Shown here: positions 601 to 11,760 of the stretch, piece by piece
Layout: the number at the start of each line of letters is the position of its first letter
Numbering within the stretch: position 1 is the stretch's first letter
UHGV virus genome: UHGV-1590541
Length of the DNA: 11,760 bases
DNA from: a virus
Reading direction: 5' to 3' (one strand)
Program-made: the position numbers and the translations under genes
Notes under the pieces: generated by a model
What the model saw: the letters and a program-made list of their open reading frames with translations, nothing else
What the model was told of the DNA's origin: nothing
Databases searched by the model: none

Positions 601-1587
601 CTATTTAAGAATAAAACGGTATTTACTGTCAGGAGTGCTTTGCTGATCAAGTAGCAGTGAACGACATGGAGCAGTCAAAACCCGAGCATAACTACCATCA
701 GGGCTTATGTTAATGTAACAAACCTTGCCCTTAACACTATAATTTTCGGGGACGGATGCCTTTGCTGATACAGTAAATTTAAGGGTATGCCAGCCCGTTT
801 TTTGCTTGTAGCTTGAAACCGAATGGAAATCATCTGAGTACTTATTTAACCCTGGAAACATGCTGCGCAGTGCGGGGATGGAATCTTCTATTATTTTATC
901 GTTGGTTTTAATGTTAAAAACGCTGGTTTCAGTAGAAGCTACTGCTTTGGCATTTCCCCATTTACCAGCGAACACAATCATTCCCACGAAAAATATTGCT
1001 ACAAGAACTAACACTCCCCCCAACACTACTACATGAGGCTTCCGGCTTCTGGTTGGTACAGTTGCGACTGATTTTGCACCGCTTTCCGATGGAGGTGATA
1101 GAGTTTTACTCTCATCACGAATATTCAGCAGATCATCAAAATAACCAAACACAGCCTGCAACTGCTCTTTGTCTAGGCCTTTAAGATGGGTTGTACCGAA
1201 ATGCTTCAGACAGTATCTGTCACGGTCAAGACGATACCCAGGGTCAGTAAGCGCCATTATTTTGCTGACCAGAAGATTACAGTCCTTCATATTCTGGATC
1301 TGTTGTGCATATCTCTGAAGGATCTCAACCGCACCATGATAATCAGCCGCAGTCATTTCATTAACTGTTTTGGTATTAAGTTTCGTGTGGATCGTCATCC
1401 ATAGCTCGCGCTTACTTTCCCCCAGATCAACCAATTCATCCATCAATCTGTGTAAATCGCGTTTTTGCAGCAACGAAATTGGTTGCTGGGCCGAAGGAAG
1501 TATGTCAGCAGAATAGTTATGAATGGTAACATCACCGCTGACAACGTTACCCACATCCCCGTTAACTGTTTGCTTCTCTTTACTCAT
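601..1587 (-). CDS. Single-pass membrane protein of unknown function (328 aa), co-transcribed with the prophage repressor
   Basis: ATG at 1587 overlaps the repressor stop (ATGA, 1584-1587). One predicted TM helix at about aa 185-207 (VVVLGGVLVLVAIFFVGMIVFAG) preceded by basic RSRKPH, implying N-in topology. The C-terminal domain of about 120 aa carries two Cys. No family recognised by eye. Lower GC than the phage core. Confidence 0.8.
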   Translation of the reverse strand: MSKEKQTVNGDVGNVVSGDVTIHNYSADILPSAQQPISLLQKRDLHRLMDELVDLGESKRELWMTIHTKLNTKTVNEMTAADYHGAVEILQRYAQQIQNMKDCNLLVSKIMALTDPGYRLDRDRYCLKHFGTTHLKGLDKEQLQAVFGYFDDLLNIRDESKTLSPPSESGAKSVATVPTRSRKPHVVVLGGVLVLVAIFFVGMIVFAGKWGNAKAVASTETSVFNIKTNDKIIEDSIPALRSMFPGLNKYSDDFHSVSSYKQKTGWHTLKFTVSAKASVPENYSVKGKVCYINISPDGSYARVLTAPCRSLLLDQQSTPDSKYRFILK

Positions 1588-2009
1588 CTTCTCTTGGTAT
1601 TTTTGTTCATTATTCCACCTGTTCCTATGGTTACGTTACCTTTGATAACATTCCCCAGAACATCTCCATGAATAACCTGTTCCGCCCGTTCTCTGGAGGA
1701 GCCAGTAGTCAAGGCCGACAAAACTGAACCTTTGACCTGTAATGGTGCCTGCCGGTAGTGCTGCAGTAACTCCATTTCATCACGTGATAAAGTTATACCT
1801 GATGACTCCCCGGTAAGAATGAACTGTACATTGGCCCCAATTCTTGCAAAGGCTGCAAGTAACTCACCTCCGGGAACAGCAACCCCTCGTTCATATTTCC
1901 CCCACATTTCTCTTGAAACGCCACAAAGGGCTGCTACTTCAGCCTGCTTGAGTGATAACCGCGAACGCTCAGCTTTGAACCGCGACGCGCAAAGAGAATC
2001 AAAATTCAC
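1584..2009 (-). CDS. Prophage repressor, XRE/cI-type helix-turn-helix (start probably GTG at 2009; longest ORF reaches ATG 2045)
   Basis: HTH segment LSLKQAEVAALCGVSREMWGKYERG, typical of XRE-family repressors. Divergent from the Ner-like gene. GTG at 2009 has a GAGG SD 5 nt upstream, whereas ATG 2045 has none and would leave only 50 bp for divergent promoters. C-terminal tail has a GDV/GNV repeat. Confidence 0.8.
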   Translation of the reverse strand: MNFDSLCASRFKAERSRLSLKQAEVAALCGVSREMWGKYERGVAVPGGELLAAFARIGANVQFILTGESSGITLSRDEMELLQHYRQAPLQVKGSVLSALTTGSSRERAEQVIHGDVLGNVIKGNVTIGTGGIMNKNTKRR

Positions 2010-2095
2010 ATAAACCTCATTGACAATGAGAACAATAGTTCTCATAATCTATCACATATAAAACAAACATCATTGCATCAACAAAGGAGACAACA
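2010..2095. promoter_or_regulatory. Divergent immunity control region: candidate operators plus rightward sigma70 early promoter
   Basis: Perfect palindrome CTCATTG-A-CAATGAG (2016-2030) overlapping a second dyad GAGAAC-AATA-GTTCTC (2028-2043). TTGACA (2020-2025), 17-bp spacer, CATAAT (2043-2048) facing the Ner-like gene. CACATAT motif at 2053-2059. Confidence 0.5.
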
Positions 2096-2284
2096 ATGAC
2101 TTCCGAACAAGTTAAAAATCTCTTCCGTCAGCGTGGTATCACGTTTACCCGCTGGGCCGAAGAACACGGCTACAGCCGCAATGAGGTCTATCGTGTTCTC
2201 AATGGACAGACCAAAGCTCGTTACGGCAAAGCCCATGAAATTGCCGTAAAACTGGGATTAAAACCCACGTCAAATGCGGCATAA
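2096..2284 (+). CDS. ner: Ner/Cro-like small DNA-binding regulator (62 aa)
   Basis: AGGAG RBS 6 nt upstream of ATG. Position is divergent from the repressor at the head of the early operon. Sequence RWAEEHGYSRNEVYRVLNGQ...AHEIAVKLGL looks like a small HTH protein. Assignment to Ner rather than another Cro-like family rests mainly on synteny. Confidence 0.7.
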   Translation: MTSEQVKNLFRQRGITFTRWAEEHGYSRNEVYRVLNGQTKARYGKAHEIAVKLGLKPTSNAA

Positions 2285-2336
2285 ATTTTCCACATATGCA
2301 ACAGGTTATCACATATTGCAAAAATGGAAATGTGAC
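2285..2336. promoter_or_regulatory. Repeated CACATAT(G/T)GCAA-like motifs between ner and the next gene (candidate Ner or HTH-protein binding sites)
   Basis: CACATATGCAA at 2291-2301 and CACATATTGCAA at 2310-2321, sharing the CACATAT core with 2053-2059 upstream of ner. Each contains short palindromes (CATATG, TTGCAA). Confidence 0.3.
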
Positions 2337-2645
2337 ATGAGTAAAGTAAATATTTCCAGTTCTGGGACCCGCATCCTACGTGTACTCAAAGCTCTACGCG
2401 GTCATGCTCTGAACGGTGTTTCTAACGGTGAACTGGCATCAGCCCTGGGGGAGTCCCCGGCGAATATCAATCGAGCACTTAATACCCTTATTGAAGAGGG
2501 ACTGGCCATGAAATTAGAGAACGGACGTTTCGCACCGGGAATCCAGTTACTACAGATCGCCATGGCTCACAGTCACGAGATGGCGCGTGCACAGGATCGT
2601 ATTAACGAAATCAACCAACGAGTTATTTCAGGTAGTCGTTTGTAA
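2337..2645 (+). CDS. Small winged-HTH protein, IclR-N-terminal-like (about 102 aa; longest ORF starts at 2274)
   Basis: RILRVLKALRGHALNGVSNGELASALGESPANINRALNTLIEEGL resembles the IclR-type HTH domain; no effector domain follows. The ATG at 2337 lies downstream of the repeat-containing spacer, whereas ATG 2274 overlaps the ner stop. Confidence 0.65.
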   Translation: MSKVNISSSGTRILRVLKALRGHALNGVSNGELASALGESPANINRALNTLIEEGLAMKLENGRFAPGIQLLQIAMAHSHEMARAQDRINEINQRVISGSRL

Positions 2646-2655
2646 GGAGTAATCA

Positions 2656-3570
2656 ATGGGACGCACCAAATCACCCGTTAACACTGAACTGAATGTTGAG
2701 GTTCCGCTGTCAGATAACATCAATGTCAATTTGAACGCTATGACACAGCATCGCATGGAAATTATGCAGCAGTTTGGTGATGGACTGCCTTATGAACGTG
2801 ATCGCATTGTTCACGAAGCACGTTTTTATATGGCGCAGAGTGCTGAATCTATGCTGGAAGCGGGTAAGCGGCTGATCATCTTAAAAGAAAATGAGCCACA
2901 CGGTGATTTTACAAACATTTTAGAAAATGAACTCGGACTTGCACCACAAGTTGCTCGCCGCATGATGCAAGCCAGTATGAAGTTTTTGGGAGAAGGTGAT
3001 GAGCCAACAAAACGCTCAACGTTGAGCGTTTTGGGGAAAGCCAAACTGTACGACCTGATGGTTCTGGATAATGAAGAACTTGATGAATTGGCCGACGGCG
3101 GCACAGTTGCCGGCCTGACGCTTGACGACGTTGATCGCATGTCAGTACGTGAATTGCGTCAGGCCCTGCGCGAAGCGCGCGAAACCAACGCAGCACAACA
3201 GCGCGTACTCGCCGACAAAAATGAAAAAATAGATTCACTCTCCACCAGACTGGAGAAGAAATCCCGTATTCAGCCGCCTGAGCCTGATGAGGAGGTTAAG
3301 AAGCTGCGGGCGGAAGTAACAGCATTAGCGGTTGAGGCGGAATCTGCTATCGCCGTCCGACTGTCCAGCGCTTTTGAGACGCTGTGCGCATATTGTGCTG
3401 AAAACATGATTGATACCCCCAGAGACTTCATGGCAGGCCTGGTCTGTCAACTGGAAAGCACAGCGCGTAGCCTGCGCTCCACATTTGACCTGCCGGACGA
3501 GCCAACAGGCAATGCAGCGCCTTCATGGCTGACTGAGCCGACGCCACAGATTAACGGGCTGGAGGCATAA
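2656..3570 (+). CDS. Hypothetical early protein (304 aa), acidic with predicted coiled-coil segments
   Basis: AAGGAG RBS. Stop at 3570 lies 3 nt before the transposase start. No domain recognised with confidence (possibly a DUF3102-like phage protein, from memory only). Confidence 0.8.
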   Translation: MGRTKSPVNTELNVEVPLSDNINVNLNAMTQHRMEIMQQFGDGLPYERDRIVHEARFYMAQSAESMLEAGKRLIILKENEPHGDFTNILENELGLAPQVARRMMQASMKFLGEGDEPTKRSTLSVLGKAKLYDLMVLDNEELDELADGGTVAGLTLDDVDRMSVRELRQALREARETNAAQQRVLADKNEKIDSLSTRLEKKSRIQPPEPDEEVKKLRAEVTALAVEAESAIAVRLSSAFETLCAYCAENMIDTPRDFMAGLVCQLESTARSLRSTFDLPDEPTGNAAPSWLTEPTPQINGLEA

Positions 3571-3573
3571 CCA

Positions 3574-5343
3574 ATGAATGCTGCCCTGACTGAACGACTG
3601 GTTTATGTCGCCCGCGCGGCACGTGACGCGGGGCATGGTAAACGCGGTGCAATATACGACGCTGCCTGTGCTGAACTTGGCATGTCCCGCGCCACTCTGC
3701 TGCGCAGGCTGAAGGAGGTCTCTGTGACTGATAAACGCAAAAAACGCGCCGATGCCGGGCGCAGCGCCCTGACCCGCGACGAAGCCGCGCTGATATCTGC
3801 CACACTGCGTGAGGCCACCCGCAAGAACGGTAAGCGTCTCTATTCCATCGCAGATGCAGTGGAAACCCTGCGGGCTAACGGCTTTATCACCGCAGGCAGA
3901 ACAGATGAAACCACCAGTGAGTTTTTCCCGTTGTCTGAAGATGCCATCAGCCGTGCTCTGCGTAACTATGGCCTGCCCCCGGAACAACTGGATGCCCCTG
4001 CACCACATACCGAAGTGGCCAGTCTGCATCCCAATCATGTCTGGCAGATTGACGCCTCACTCTGCACGCTTTACTACCTGAGCAATGGACATAAAGGGCT
4101 GCAGGTGATGGACAGCGCGAAGTTCTACAAGAACAAGCCCGCTAACCTTGCCCGTATCGCCAGTGACCGCGTGTGGAGTTACGAGATTACCGACCATGCC
4201 AGCGGCTGGATTTACGTTGAGTATGTGACGGGCGCGGAATCAGGTGAGAACCTGTGTTCTGTGCTTATCAACGCCATGCAGGAGCGTGGCGGCGCAGACG
4301 TGCTGCACGGCGTGCCGAAAATACTCTATCTCGACCCCGGCTCGGCAAACACCGCGGGTATGACGAAAAACATGTGCCGCTCACTGGGCATCGACCTGAT
4401 AGCGCACAAGCCGCATAACGCCCGCGCCACCGGACAGGTGGAAAAGGCGCGTGACATTATCGAACGCAAGCTGGAGCCGGGTCTGAAGTTCCGGCCGGTT
4501 CACGGTCTGGAAGAACTCAACGCGCTGGCCGCGAAATGGCGCAGCCACTTTAACGCCACGGCTGTTCACAGCCGCCACGGTAAAACCCGCACGGATATCT
4601 GGCTGAAGATTACTGCTGAGCAGCTGAAAAAAGCGCCTTCCGTTGAGGTATGTCGTGAACTGGCTGTGGCGGCACCAGAACTCCGCAAAGTCACGCCAAA
4701 ACTTCGTGTCTCGTTCCGGGGCACTGAATTTGACGTATCAACGGTACCGGGCGTACTGGTTGGTGAAAAACTGATGATTACCCGTAACCCATGGCGCAGC
4801 GATGTGGCACAGGTGGTTCTGACCGGTGAGGACGGCCACGAGACGTTCTTCCTGGTCGAAGAGGTCAGAAAGAACGAGTTTGGCTTTGCTGAAGGCGCGG
4901 CGGTATTTGGCGAAAGTTACAAAGCCCTGCCGGAAACCCCGGCACAGATGGCGGCAAAAGAAACCGAAGCGCTGGTTACCGGTACAGACAACGCCGCAGA
5001 TGCAGCCGCCGCACGCAAGGCGAAGGCGCTGCCGTTCGGCGGGCGGCTTGACCCGTATAAACATATCGACGACACCACACTTCCGGCCTATATGCCGAAG
5101 CGTGGTCAGGCCTCTGACGTACGCGGGCCGCGCACTGAACAACGTCCCATGACTCATGTGGAGGCCGCGAAAGCCCTGCGCGATAAGTTCAGCGCCGACG
5201 GCCTTACCTGGACGCCGGAACATTACCGCCAGTTAACGGCACAGTACCCGGACGGCGTACCGGAAGCCGCACTGGATGAAGTCATGGCCACGCTGACCAC
5301 ACCGGCCCGCAGCAGTGTTATCAGCATTGTTAACGGCAACTGA
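3574..5343 (+). CDS. DDE transposase (retroviral-integrase/rve-like catalytic core), functional analogue of Mu A (589 aa)
   Basis: GGAGG RBS. N-terminal HTH-like region, then candidate catalytic residues in HVWQIDASL, KILYLDPGSANTA and GQVEKARDIIERKLE, matching D..D..E spacing of rve-type transposases. Followed directly by an AAA+ ATPase, as in transposable phages. Confidence 0.9.
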   Translation: MNAALTERLVYVARAARDAGHGKRGAIYDAACAELGMSRATLLRRLKEVSVTDKRKKRADAGRSALTRDEAALISATLREATRKNGKRLYSIADAVETLRANGFITAGRTDETTSEFFPLSEDAISRALRNYGLPPEQLDAPAPHTEVASLHPNHVWQIDASLCTLYYLSNGHKGLQVMDSAKFYKNKPANLARIASDRVWSYEITDHASGWIYVEYVTGAESGENLCSVLINAMQERGGADVLHGVPKILYLDPGSANTAGMTKNMCRSLGIDLIAHKPHNARATGQVEKARDIIERKLEPGLKFRPVHGLEELNALAAKWRSHFNATAVHSRHGKTRTDIWLKITAEQLKKAPSVEVCRELAVAAPELRKVTPKLRVSFRGTEFDVSTVPGVLVGEKLMITRNPWRSDVAQVVLTGEDGHETFFLVEEVRKNEFGFAEGAAVFGESYKALPETPAQMAAKETEALVTGTDNAADAAAARKAKALPFGGRLDPYKHIDDTTLPAYMPKRGQASDVRGPRTEQRPMTHVEAAKALRDKFSADGLTWTPEHYRQLTAQYPDGVPEAALDEVMATLTTPARSSVISIVNGN

Positions 5344-5353
5344 GGAGGGAAAC

Positions 5354-6520
5354 ATGCTGGTACTGAAGCAGCAACTGAAAGAGGCCCGTATTCCACAGGC
5401 GGTGGTGGCGAGAGCTGTCGATGTTTCTGAGGCCACGCTGGCCCAGATTGTGAATCATAACGCGTGGCCCCGCACCAGCCCCGGAGAAGTGCGCCGGCGT
5501 CTTGCGTCCTGGCTGGAAAGTCAGGGGATTGATACAACGAAGAGTTTTGATGCTGTACAGGGCGCGGCCACGCCCCGTACAGCGGGTACCACAGATAAAA
5601 CGAGCCTCAGTGAGGAAGAGAATATGTTACTCAAAAAACAGGTGTTATTTCCAGCAACCAAAAAAGCGTTTGGTCTTTTCCGTGACCCGTTCGCCGACGA
5701 AGCCATGCAGGGTTCTGATGATGTGTTCACCACCCCGGACATTCGCTACGTGCGTGAGGCGCTGTACCAGACAGCCCGTCATGGTGGGTTTATGGCCGTC
5801 ATCGGTGAGTCCGGTGCGGGTAAATCCACGCTGCGCCGCGACCTGACTGAACGTATCAACCGCGAGAATGCGCCGGTAATTGTTATCGAGCCATACATCA
5901 TCGCTATGGAAGACAACGATGTGAAAGGGAAAACCCTGAAGGCAGCAGCTATTGCCGAAGCCATTATCAGTACCATCGCACCACTGGAAAGCATCAGACG
6001 CAGTCAGGACGCCCGTTTTCGCCAGTTGCATCGCGTCCTGAAAGACAGCAGCCAGGCGGGGTTCAGCCACGTTCTGGTGATTGAGGAGGCCCACAGTCTG
6101 CCCATTCCGACACTGAAACACCTCAAACGCTTTTTTGAGCTGGAGTCCGGTTTCAAAAAACTGCTGTCCATCGTGCTGATTGGCCAGCCGGAACTGGCGA
6201 CAAAACTGTCTGAACGCAATATGGAAGTCCGTGAAGTCGTTCAGCGCTGTGAGGTGGTCGAACTTCTGCCTCTGGACAATAACCTTGAAGAATTTCTGAC
6301 GTTCAAACTGCAACGGGCCGGTAAACAGCTGACGGACATTATGGACGCCGGTGCAGTGGATGCCATACGTGCCCGCCTGAGCAATCCGGGAAGTCACCGT
6401 AAAAATATGGTCAGCCTGCTGTATCCGCTGGCCGTCAGTAACCTGGTAATAGCCGCCATGAATCTGGCCGCTGAAATCGGGGTTCCACAGGTCAACGCTG
6501 ACGTTGTCAAAGGGGTTTAA
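5354..6520 (+). CDS. AAA+ ATPase transposition helper protein (MuB / TniB-like), N-terminal HTH (longest ORF starts at 5315)
   Basis: Walker A GESGAGKST and Walker B-like VLVIEEAH. GAGGAGGG RBS immediately upstream of ATG 5354, 11 nt after the transposase stop. Confidence 0.9.
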   Translation: MLVLKQQLKEARIPQAVVARAVDVSEATLAQIVNHNAWPRTSPGEVRRRLASWLESQGIDTTKSFDAVQGAATPRTAGTTDKTSLSEEENMLLKKQVLFPATKKAFGLFRDPFADEAMQGSDDVFTTPDIRYVREALYQTARHGGFMAVIGESGAGKSTLRRDLTERINRENAPVIVIEPYIIAMEDNDVKGKTLKAAAIAEAIISTIAPLESIRRSQDARFRQLHRVLKDSSQAGFSHVLVIEEAHSLPIPTLKHLKRFFELESGFKKLLSIVLIGQPELATKLSERNMEVREVVQRCEVVELLPLDNNLEEFLTFKLQRAGKQLTDIMDAGAVDAIRARLSNPGSHRKNMVSLLYPLAVSNLVIAAMNLAAEIGVPQVNADVVKGV

Positions 6521-6819: not shown

Positions 6820-7350
6820 ATGGCAAAAAGTACAAAAGGTGCAAAACGTATCAAGGCCGCAGCAGCACTCTGGGTGCCGGGGACACGTGAAGAGGTCATT
6901 GAGGGAATCAGACTACTCGGTGACGCACAACGTGAACTGGTCAGGGCTGAAACAGAAATGAATGACGCCATTGGCGATATCACCGCACGTTATGCCCCGC
7001 TCACCGAGAGCCTGAAAAAACGCATGGCCGAACTGCAGTCCGGTATTCAGACATGGTGTGAGGCACACCGTGATGAACTGACCGGCAACGGGAAGGTGAA
7101 GTTCGCTAACCTCACCACCGGCGAGGTGCAGTGGCGAAACCGTCCGCCATCAGTCAGTATCCGTGGGGCGGATAATGTTATTGAATTACTGAGACGTCTG
7201 GGGCTTGAGCGCTTTATTCGTGTAAAAGAGGAAATAAATAAAGACGCTATCCTGAATGAAAAAGAGGCCGTGAAAAATATTCCCGGTATTTCCATTAAAA
7301 GCGACATTGAGGATTTTTCAATAATTCCTTTTGAGCAGGATGTGCAGTAA
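6820..7350 (+). CDS. gam: Host-nuclease inhibitor protein Gam (Mu Gam family, Ku-like DNA-end-binding)
   Basis: 176 aa. Long collinear matches to Mu Gam as I remember it: MAK..KRIK.AAA..VP at the N-terminus, ETEMNDAI, WCEA.RDELT, RPPSVSIRG, LERLGL.RFIR.K.EINKEAIL and a C-terminal IEDFSIIPFEQ. Confidence 0.95.
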   Translation: MAKSTKGAKRIKAAAALWVPGTREEVIEGIRLLGDAQRELVRAETEMNDAIGDITARYAPLTESLKKRMAELQSGIQTWCEAHRDELTGNGKVKFANLTTGEVQWRNRPPSVSIRGADNVIELLRRLGLERFIRVKEEINKDAILNEKEAVKNIPGISIKSDIEDFSIIPFEQDVQ

Positions 7351-10391: not shown

Positions 10392-10448
<57 letters not shown>

Positions 10449-10449
10449 A

Positions 10450-10525
<76 letters not shown>

Positions 10526-10776: not shown

Positions 10777-11760
10777 TTACATATATGCAGCTCCCATCAC
10801 TTCTTCTGGTGAAATCTCTTTATCGTTGGTTAGCAATACCCAGAGCACTCTGGCATTTTTGTTGTTCAGCGCTACGGTGGCAACATTTTTATTCCGCCGC
10901 GAGACTGGTCTGCCCAGCCAGCTTTCCTGGACCTGTCTGCCCTTTCTGGCGTTTGACACTGTCTTCGCACCATGGAACAGTAGCGTTCTGATATAGACAT
11001 CGTCCCGTTTACTGATAGACCCCAGCGTGTTTTTACCTACGCTGAAGCACTGTCGGGGAACCAGTCCAAGCCATGCAGCAAGCTGACGCCGGTTTTTGAA
11101 GCCGATACTACCCGGTGCTGACAATTGCAGTGGTGGTAAGAATAGCAATCCCCGAAATGGTGGCAATTTTCCTGCACAGTTCGTCGTTCCCGACGTGTTC
11201 GTTGCTAACGGCTTCTATGGTTTCAATGTGTACGCTCAGTTGTTTCACATTTTCATTAGAGATAGGACGACAGCTGTCTGAACGGCATTGTTAAACAGTT
11301 TTCCGCGTCTTCAAGCAGGGCAGGGACATGACGACTGATCGCTACAGTGTCGGGCGGGAGAACGATGCCAAATTCAGCCAGTAATCCTCTGATCTGGTTT
11401 ATCTGCGCAGTCCTTGATTTAACAAACCCCGTCAGGGCACGATGAAAAGACAGTAATGACTACTGCTCAGGCGTCTTGATGCTGACAAACCGCATATTAG
11501 GTCGGGTAACGGCTTCACAGATGGCCTCGGCAGCAGCCATATCATTCTTGTTTGTTTTCACATATGGCTTTACAAATCGCGGGCATTAGTCTGACATTAT
11601 GCCCCTAAGTAGACAGCATTCTCACTAATGACGCGCTCCGGCGCAGACCTCCATCCCAATCCGACAGGAAGACATATTCGCGAAGAATACGGGCATCAGG
11701 GAACGTTTAATCCGTTTTCTGAGCTTAGATTTTTCTGTTCCTACCCAGACCGTGGATTTG
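10777..11760 (-). pseudogene. IS110-family (DEDD) transposase, decayed: multiple in-frame stops and frameshifts; N-terminus beyond window end
   Basis: Minus-strand translation gives segments in three frames that read collinearly like an IS110-family transposase: FFANMSSCRIGMEVCAGARH, PYVKTNKNDMAAAEAICEAVTRPNMRFVSIKTPEQ, IRGLLAEFGIV, ISGIAILTTTAIV, RRQLAAWLGLVPRQ...ISKRDDVYIRTLLFHGAKTV, VATVALNNKNARVLW. In-frame stops at 11622-11627 (TAG TGA), 11586-11588 (TAA) and 11460-11462 (TAG); frame changes near 11256 and near 11110-11125. Confidence 0.8.

Follow-up and report, generated by a model that had tools for sequence, protein, structure and literature searches.

Predicted repressor operators in the early control region of a BcepMu-like prophage of Escherichia coli

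In phage Mu and phage lambda, the regulators Ner and Cro bind between divergent promoters, and Mu needs IHF between its operators O1 and O2. The closest known system to the region described here is the control region of the Pseudomonas phages B3 and Fc02 (Beetrevirus), whose homologue of the first early gene is named ner-like in the papers on the B3 family. RNA-seq of Fc02 revealed that the early promoter pE fires on induction or derepression with the ner-like gene as the first gene, and that the repressor is transcribed from pC2, which overlaps pE in a spacer of 106 bp, and from the distal pC1, which reads antisense through the ner-like gene (PMC9936078). The present study deals with the corresponding region of the UHGV virus genome UHGV-1590541, a stretch of 11,760 nucleotides that was analysed as a whole and is referred to as the window. 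Here, a repressor gene and a ner-like gene diverge from an intergenic spacer of 86 bp, if the repressor is taken to start at GTG 2009. An earlier note made from the sequence of the window had described a compact control region between divergent genes, in which a repressor operator lies on top of a strong early promoter, and this description is supported by the comparison with related prophages. We consider it likely that an operator in the spacer of the early promoter Pe, named O1, together with a weaker copy on the start codon of the repressor gene, named O2, constitutes the immunity switch of this BcepMu-like prophage.

Early promoter and operator O1

The early promoter Pe consists of the -35 hexamer TTGACA (2020-2025, plus strand), which is kept in relatives, and the -10 hexamer CATAAT (2043-2048, plus strand). 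The near-consensus rightward promoter proposed earlier was thus recovered: the two hexamers agree with the sigma-70 consensus at 11 of 12 positions, the spacer of 17 nt lies within the range of 16-18 nt, and the promoter is conserved in relatives. In a consensus scan of both strands between 1500 and 2800, Pe was the sole promoter-like match. A set of 80 loci was fetched with the ner-like protein and contained 59 distinct upstream regions, 46 of which carry a promoter (at least 9 of 12 consensus positions) that ends 42-49 nt, mostly 46-47 nt, before the ATG of the ner-like gene; a perfect dyad of at least 5 bp is present in the spacer of 36 of these 46 promoters. Judged by its sequence, the promoter is real, and transcription is predicted to start near 2054-2056.

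The spacer of Pe is filled by O1, GAGAAC-AATA-GTTCTC (2028-2043), which also takes the first base of the -10 hexamer. It corresponds to the second of two overlapping perfect dyads which had been placed on the promoter in the earlier note. All coordinates given there for the dyads, the promoter and the repeats are correct in the sequence; the second dyad is larger than noted and reads ATGAGAAC-AATA-GTTCTCAT at 2026-2045, with perfect arms of 8 bp around a non-palindromic centre of 4 nt, so that 2028-2043 represents the 6-bp core. In the whole 11.76-kb window, no more than seven distinct dyads have arms of 7 bp or longer and a loop of up to 6 nt; the 86-bp spacer contains two of these, which overlap. 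When the spacer was shuffled 5000 times with its dinucleotide composition retained, at least one such dyad was found in 2.5% and at least two in 0.36% of the shuffles.

For the comparison of the operator, 52 loci were fetched by the repressor protein alone, with identities of 39-99%, which resulted in 42 distinct control regions. The recognition helix SREMWGKYERG is common to nearly all of the 52 repressors, and the composite pattern TTGACA-NN-GAGAAC-N4-GTTCTC-ATAAT was present in 38 of the 42 control regions. Within an alignment of 38 sequences (A2), the six core pairs of O1 are complementary in 29 to 38 sequences, as opposed to only 27 and 20 for the two outer pairs that are perfect in the window. 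Symmetric double changes, namely GCGAAC..GTTCGC and GAGAAA..TTTCTC, were found in two relatives (L100, L108), so that the two-fold symmetry is kept where the bases differ. An exact scan of species-representative genomes with the composite pattern yielded four matches, three of which adjoin a repressor with the helix SREMWGKYERG, from Francisella, Methylotenera and Burkholderiaceae metagenome-assembled genomes. In these comparisons, O1 stands out as a single operator in the promoter spacer, conserved, symmetric and co-varying with the helix-turn-helix (HTH) domain of the repressor.

The other dyad, CTCATTG-A-CAATGAG with perfect arms of 7 bp (2016-2030), behaves differently. Of 38 relatives, only 16 have complementary bases in pair 1-15, 11 in pair 2-14 and 12 in pair 4-12 (Watson-Crick pairs only, G-T pairs excluded), and the dyad has already decayed in a relative with a 94% identical repressor. 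Merely the core TTG-A-CAA is kept, which is the -35 hexamer plus one base. Because the outer pairs are retained in so few relatives, this dyad is probably incidental, a by-product of the self-symmetric TTGACAA of the -35 hexamer, the ATGAG flank of O1 and the complement of the Shine-Dalgarno sequence of the repressor gene. The earlier note had regarded both dyads as operators and had named motif conservation in related prophages as a check; carried out here, this check retained O1, which behaves as an operator, and failed for the first dyad as well as for one of the CACATAT repeats discussed below (copy 2). A further O1-like sequence with one mismatch, GAGAACCTGTGTTCTG (4246-4261), lies in the transposase gene and was considered as a distal operator. 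It was rejected because it is identical in the heteroimmune phage PhiKM, and it is therefore attributed to coding sequence or chance rather than to an immunity-specific operator.

Escherichia phage PhiKM (PQ738613, L001), of the genus Bcepmuvirus, is the nearest classified phage, with 84% identity. It has an XRE repressor of another type and, in the same position of the promoter spacer, the palindrome GCTCATAATTATGAGC. The same is true of the heteroimmune relatives in general, which have a dyad of their own in this spacer that differs with each repressor type. In the comparison of the window with PhiKM and the other heteroimmune relatives (L001-L051), similarity begins at 2044, within the -10 hexamer, and the sequences are unrelated leftward of it. 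From this boundary, it follows that the repressor gene and its operators form a module for exchange with its end at the -10 hexamer, which is at the same time the junction to the conserved module on the side of the ner-like gene. In two relatives (L093, L094), the 79 C-terminal residues of the repressor are 87% identical to those of the window repressor, the HTH domain only 51%, and the spacer dyad is TGTGAT-N6-ATCACA, unlike O1. This suggests hybrid repressors that arose by recombination at the level of domains. In the PhiKM record, the XRE-type repressor of 118 amino acids (2103-2459, minus strand), which diverges from the ner-like gene, is not annotated; the record contains an open reading frame (ORF) of 41 amino acids on the opposite strand instead.

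Repressor start, second site O2 and proposed switch

The immunity repressor gene (1584-2009, minus strand; 1584-2045 in RefSeq) encodes a protein with an N-terminal HTH domain of the XRE/Cro-C1 type. It passed the Pfam cut-offs of HTH_31 (30.7 bits, cut-off 27) and HTH_3 (23.2 bits, cut-off 23) and matched these two families only, an S24 peptidase domain being absent. RefSeq places the start at ATG 2045, corresponding to 153 amino acids. The aligned first codon of the homologues is a GTG or ATG at the position of GTG 2009-2007 of the window, and three relatives have stop codons just upstream of it. These alignments and stop codons support GTG 2009-2007 as the true start, which gives a protein of 141 amino acids. 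A Shine-Dalgarno sequence GAGG (2018-2015, minus strand; CCTC on the plus strand) is located 5 nt before this GTG, and GG(G/A)G is found at the same place in relatives. The earlier suggestion that the dyads also cover the Shine-Dalgarno region of the repressor gene is borne out, provided that the start is GTG 2009, as the homologues indicate.

With this start, a second site comes to lie on the first codons of the repressor gene. O2, GAGAATCAAAATTCAC (GAGAAT-CAAA-ATTCAC, 1994-2009), which had been missed in the earlier note, was recognised by pattern matching; it is an imperfect copy of O1 with three mismatches, located 34 bp to the left of O1 from centre to centre, and covers the start codon and codons 2-6. 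In most of the distinct relatives, an O2-like site is found 32 to 35 bp to the left of O1. The amino acids encoded under O2 vary among the relatives (NFDSL, KFDSH, NIDSQ, DFCSL, NNSSL and others), yet the serine codon is always TCT; it always follows a codon ending in T and usually precedes a codon starting with C, be it for L, H or Q. The bases T-TCT-C are thus held by the choice of codons while the residues change, which points to selection on the DNA itself.

Based on these features, the following switch is proposed. In the lysogen, the divergently encoded repressor of the XRE type would bind O1 as a dimer, fill the promoter spacer and touch the -10 hexamer, so that RNA polymerase is excluded from Pe. 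A second dimer would occupy the weaker O2 on the start codon, probably in cooperation with the dimer on O1. Pe, with a predicted start near 2055, would drive the genes of the ner-like protein, the IclR-type HTH protein, the DUF3102 protein and transposases A and B. Because the Shine-Dalgarno sequence at 2015-2018 forces any repressor transcript to start to the right of about 2024, O1 and O2 would be located on or downstream of the repressor promoter, and their occupancy would limit the synthesis of the repressor in the manner of a negative autoregulation. According to the earlier note, one and the same site would repress the early operon and autoregulate the repressor. The operator on Pe was confirmed by the comparison, and by geometry O1 must also affect the transcription of the repressor gene; the likelier autoregulatory partner is the separate O2 rather than the first dyad.

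Several points weigh against this reading. No leftward repressor promoter was detected between 1500 and 2800 in the consensus scan, and nothing above chance was found between 2300 and 7400, so the route of autoregulation is deduced from geometry only. The 38 aligned sequences were filtered on similarity to O1, which makes the pair counts lean towards O1, although the loci had been selected by their repressor protein rather than by DNA; moreover, the relatives are phylogenetically related and their counts are not independent events. O2 lies within coding sequence and has three mismatches, and part of its conservation could result from constraint on the protein. The first dyad is perfect in the present lineage, where a lineage-specific role is possible. 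What the comparison of sequences shows is the promoter, the conservation and symmetry of O1 and O2 and their co-variation with the HTH domain; the binding, its cooperativity, the autoregulation and the start sites are deduced from it.

The ner-like gene product and conserved boxes

The first gene of the early operon (2096-2284, plus strand) encodes an HTH protein of 62 amino acids, which belongs to the BcepMu gp16 family (NCBIfam TIGR04111, 94.4 bits, cut-off 34) and matches phrog_925 with E = 1e-32. It does not reach the cut-off of the Pfam family of Mu Ner (PF13693 HTH_35), scoring 14.6 bits (E = 0.034) where 25 bits are required, compared with 95.8 bits for Mu Ner itself. An hhalign comparison with Mu Ner resulted in a probability of 4.3% and a pairwise P of 0.0097, though the two proteins are collinear over 52 columns. 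A PDB sequence search with E values up to 10 retrieved no Ner chain, and the fold matches of a single-sequence structure model were generic HTH proteins. The gene is therefore described here as Ner/Cro-like by position and is not filed in the Ner family; its product is perhaps a remote relative of Ner.

In the earlier note, three CACATAT motifs flanking this gene (2053-2059, 2291-2297 and 2310-2316) were proposed as Ner-type sites. The motifs are present as stated, and the window contains four copies in total compared with 1.38 expected, a number reached in 10 of 200 shuffles. Copies 1 and 3 belong to a shared 10-mer, TATCACATAT, at 2050-2059 (box 1) and 2307-2316 (box 3), 257 bp apart. With at most one mismatch, this 10-mer occurs three times in the window compared with 0.38 expected, and none of 200 shuffles reached three. 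Box 1 (plus strand) is located 6 to 8 nt past the -10 hexamer and holds the predicted start of Pe; its complement reads TG-A-TAGATT, a possible extended -10 element of a leftward promoter. Among 58 distinct relatives, this block reads CACATAT in 7 and CACACAT in 19, and CACA near +1 is also found in repressor relatives with otherwise unrelated leaders. Copy 2 (2291-2297, plus strand) is specific to the lineage: it is present in only 1 of the 58 distinct sequences, absent or different in L001, L013, L014 and L032, and mutated to CCATATAT in a relative with a 98% identical Ner-like protein. It is probably noise without a function. The proposal of three Ner-type sites is hence not supported in this form, since copy 2 is confined to a single sequence, copy 1 lies on the predicted start and the protein is below the cut-off of the Ner family.

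Box 3 is part of a conserved element 3' of the ner-like gene (2298-2325, plus strand; GTAACAG-NNT-W-TCA-Y-ATAT-N-G-AAAA), which exists in two conserved variants, GGTTATCACATATTGC and GTGTTTCATATATAG, and remains beside the ner-like gene in loci with a different following gene (L036, L050, L053, L064). A rightward promoter at box 3 was considered and rejected, as no -35 partner is conserved across the relatives. A sequence resembling box 3 in AGGTTAT and ATTGCA, TTTTCACATACTGTAAGGTTATTGCATATTCC, is located at 10400-10450, 3' of the last ORF of the early region. It is followed on the minus strand by fragmented ORFs (10777-11700), guessed to be a transposase remnant, and the fourth CACATAT of the window (11559-11565) lies within this stretch.

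Between box 1 and the ner-like gene, an alignment of 49 distinct leaders revealed a conserved block, CAAACATCATTGCATCA (2064-2080, plus strand), which is also found in phage B3. Its part (A/T)TTGCATCA, about 10 nt before the ribosome-binding site, is conserved more widely than any other non-coding element in front of the genes of the gp16 family and had been missed in the earlier note. In the leaders of L031, L040, L047 and L051 (equivalent to 2060-2080), GGCAAACATCATTGCATCA is replaced by GTACAAACATAGTTGTATCA, a symmetric double change from GCAA..TTGC to TACAA..TTGTA. A hairpin or dyad GCAA-N6-TTGC in the leader of Pe was considered and rejected: one clade has ACAA..TTGT, yet in the window, as in many relatives, the outer pair is mismatched. 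An Rfam search of the control region for RNA elements gave no credible match.

The function of boxes 1 and 3 can be explained in different ways. They may be promoter features and not operators, which is possible but, on the present evidence, unlikely. Box 1 would then belong to the initiation of Pe, and its other strand, TG-A-TAGATT, would be the extended -10 element of a back-to-back repressor promoter, arranged like pC2 and pE; the minus strand of box 3, TG-T-GATAAC, with GATAAT in some relatives, could represent a distal leftward promoter like pC1. Such a pair of promoters, one overlapping and one distal, transcribes the repressor gene of Fc02 (PMC9936078), and across the enterobacterial clade the sequence AATCTA(A/T)CA is kept directly 3' of the -10 hexamer of Pe. 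At box 3, several relatives have AGATTATCACA, whose minus strand reads TGTGATAAT; however, the hexamer GATAAC of box 3 in the window is devoid of the critical final T, the hexamers of both boxes are weak, there is no -35 partner, and neither box was matched in the consensus scan. In addition, the relatives with variant B have no such element, and the motif is not kept in distant relatives of the repressor.

Alternatively, both conserved TATCACATAT boxes could be operators of the gp16-family protein, an interpretation that we regard as doubtful. Binding to box 1 would shut off the repressor promoter and damp Pe, and box 3 would provide a second contact at a distance of 257 bp, through cooperativity, looping or downstream control. 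This would be analogous to Mu Ner and lambda Cro; conserved candidate blocks for binding between the divergent promoters are found at 2050-2080, and the 10-mer is present in two exact copies where hardly any would be expected. Both blocks are conserved together with the ner-like gene across heteroimmune relatives, and the HTH of the protein is nearly invariant, for which a conserved target would be expected. In 26 of 28 distinct loci, 6-mers of the leader recur in the 3' spacer, with CACATA and TATCAC as the top words, compared with 16.8 in shuffles (maximum 23). However, the two boxes do not track each other, as many relatives pair CACACATAAG upstream with TTTCATATATAG downstream, and the more distant gp16 relatives lack box 3 entirely. 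The motif is also short, AT-rich and low in information, and CACA at +1 is found even where the leader is otherwise unrelated. A more far-reaching version, which is speculative and quite improbable, would have the two boxes as DNA targets of the gp16 family that bracket its own gene and exert looped or two-site control of Pe, the repressor promoter and the read-through into transposition, with O2 possibly as a deliberate and conserved autoregulatory device in the first six codons of the repressor gene across many unrelated phages. If true, this would provide the first operator and the first role for the gp16 family, which is widespread in transposable phages.

The model of the earlier note in its full form, with both dyads as a composite repressor operator over the -35 hexamer and the spacer and all three CACATAT copies as Ner-like sites on both sides of the gene, is very unlikely. 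Both dyads are indeed perfect, their joint occurrence within 86 bp is rare in shuffles (0.36%), and three of the four CACATAT copies in 11.76 kb fall within 264 bp; but of 38 relatives that share the recognition helix, only 11 to 16 keep the outer pairs of the first dyad, the dyad is already degraded at 94% repressor identity, copy 2 is unique to the lineage, and the 62-amino-acid protein is below the cut-off of the Ner family. Hardly credible, finally, is chance symmetry without any specific operators: short palindromes do arise easily in AT-rich promoter and intergenic regions, and the O1 pattern with up to three mismatches is not enriched in the window (5 found, 3.9 expected), but this is contradicted by the fixed place of O1 in the promoters of relatives from several bacterial orders with only 40-60% protein identity, by its symmetric changes and by its co-variation with the HTH domain.

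Prophage context and comparison with known systems

The gene content and sequence of the window are those of a BcepMu-like, transposable prophage of E. coli of the Mu-like type. Its Mu-type early gene set and its nucleotide similarity to classified members place it in Bcepmuvirus. Prophages of E. coli IAI39, CE10 and many further strains match positions 1500-2700 with 100% identity. Of 5426 complete E. coli genomes, 624 contain at least a part of the control-region stretch; 127 of them match at least 80% of it and represent the present immunity type. The ner-like gene is followed on the plus strand by a second early gene (2337-2645) for a protein of 102 amino acids with an IclR-type winged HTH (Pfam HTH_IclR, 28.9 bits; phrog_1368, E = 2e-44), a DUF3102 gene (2656-3570), an rve transposase gene (3574-5343), a gene for a MuB-like ATPase of the AAA_22 family (5354-6520) and a Mu Gam gene (6820-7350). 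Within the DUF3102 gene, at 3008-3033, there is a perfect palindrome of 26 bp, CAAAACGCTCAACGTTGAGCGTTTTG, with the shape A4, GC stem, T4. It stays perfect at 26 of 26 positions in relatives by symmetric changes, namely CTCAGCGCTGAG in PhiKM, CAAAAGCGACAACGTTGTCGCTTTTG in L013, CGGCAAGCGCTTGCCG in L034 and CGGCCAACGTTGGCCG in L050, and the encoded amino acids change along with it. This indicates strong selection at the level of DNA or RNA, and the palindrome could be a terminator-like hairpin or a protein site. On the other side of the control region, a gene on the minus strand (601-1587) encodes a protein of 328 amino acids with no assigned role and overlaps with the repressor gene in ATGA at 1584-1587. 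The motif GDV-GNV-G-VTI is common to the C-terminus of the repressor (IHGDVLGNVIKGNVTIG, 1584-1680) and the N-terminus of this protein (VNGDVGNVVSGDVTIHN, 1530-1587).

The analysis provides an operator consensus that can be tested, TTGACA-NN-GAGAAC-N4-GTTCTC-ATAAT with a start-codon copy at a distance of 33-34 bp, which covers the repressor family of BcepMu-like prophages as well as of more distant phage contigs from other hosts. It also corrects the annotated start of the repressor gene, shows that immunity modules are exchanged at a junction inside the -10 hexamer, and singles out two conserved blocks in which to look for the target of the gp16-family regulator. The switch is of an ordinary type, and the general understanding of phage switches remains unchanged; the use of the results lies in annotation, the prediction of immunity groups, reporters and inducible prophage tools. 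A published description of the present operator was not found in the literature searched.

With the cI/Cro switches of lambda, 434 and P22, the locus shares dimeric HTH repressors, a repressor gene in divergent orientation and dyad operators overlapping a strong lytic promoter; in both, neighbouring operators are spaced by about three helical turns, and heteroimmune modules are exchanged. In contrast to these switches, the locus has two sites instead of three, and its repressor has no S24 peptidase domain. The second site is located inside the first codons of the repressor gene and not upstream of PRM, so a lambda-type activation of the repressor promoter is unlikely. Phage Mu is likewise transposable and has a divergent repressor gene, a small HTH protein as the first early gene product, followed by transposases A and B, and an operator that overlaps Pe; by the same likeness, a second regulator of the Ner/Cro type would be expected. 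Mu differs in its spacer of 235 bp as opposed to 86 bp, in its repressor c, which does not have an XRE HTH, and in its Ner, which is a member of Pfam HTH_35 (95.8 bits compared with 14.6 bits for the window protein). The IHF consensus WATCAANNNNTTR, moreover, has no match anywhere in the 11.76-kb window.

Among the BcepMu-type phages of the genus Bcepmuvirus, such as PhiKM and Klebsiella phage KP12, the gene order and the ner-like protein of the gp16 family are the same, and the stretch that runs from the -10 hexamer to the right, ner-like and IclR-type genes included, has a nucleotide identity of 81-84%; PhiKM differs in its repressor and spacer palindrome and thus belongs to another immunity type. 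Compared with B3 and Fc02, the specificity of the repressor differs, since the operator is GGTGC-N8-GCACC in B3 and GAGAAC-N4-GTTCTC here, and the distal pC1 and the overlapping olg genes of Fc02 were not found in the present locus. The ner-like first genes of these phages are homologous to that of the window, with about 70% nucleotide identity over about 150 nt and 71% amino acid identity (alignment A1), and both systems have a divergent XRE-type repressor gene and a short spacer, 86 bp here and 106 bp in Fc02. As read from the B3 sequence in the present analysis and not from published footprints, the architecture of the operators is also alike: GGTGC-N8-GCACC lies in the spacer of the near-consensus pE, and a copy, AGTGA..TCACC, sits on the GTG start codon, 33 bp further left.

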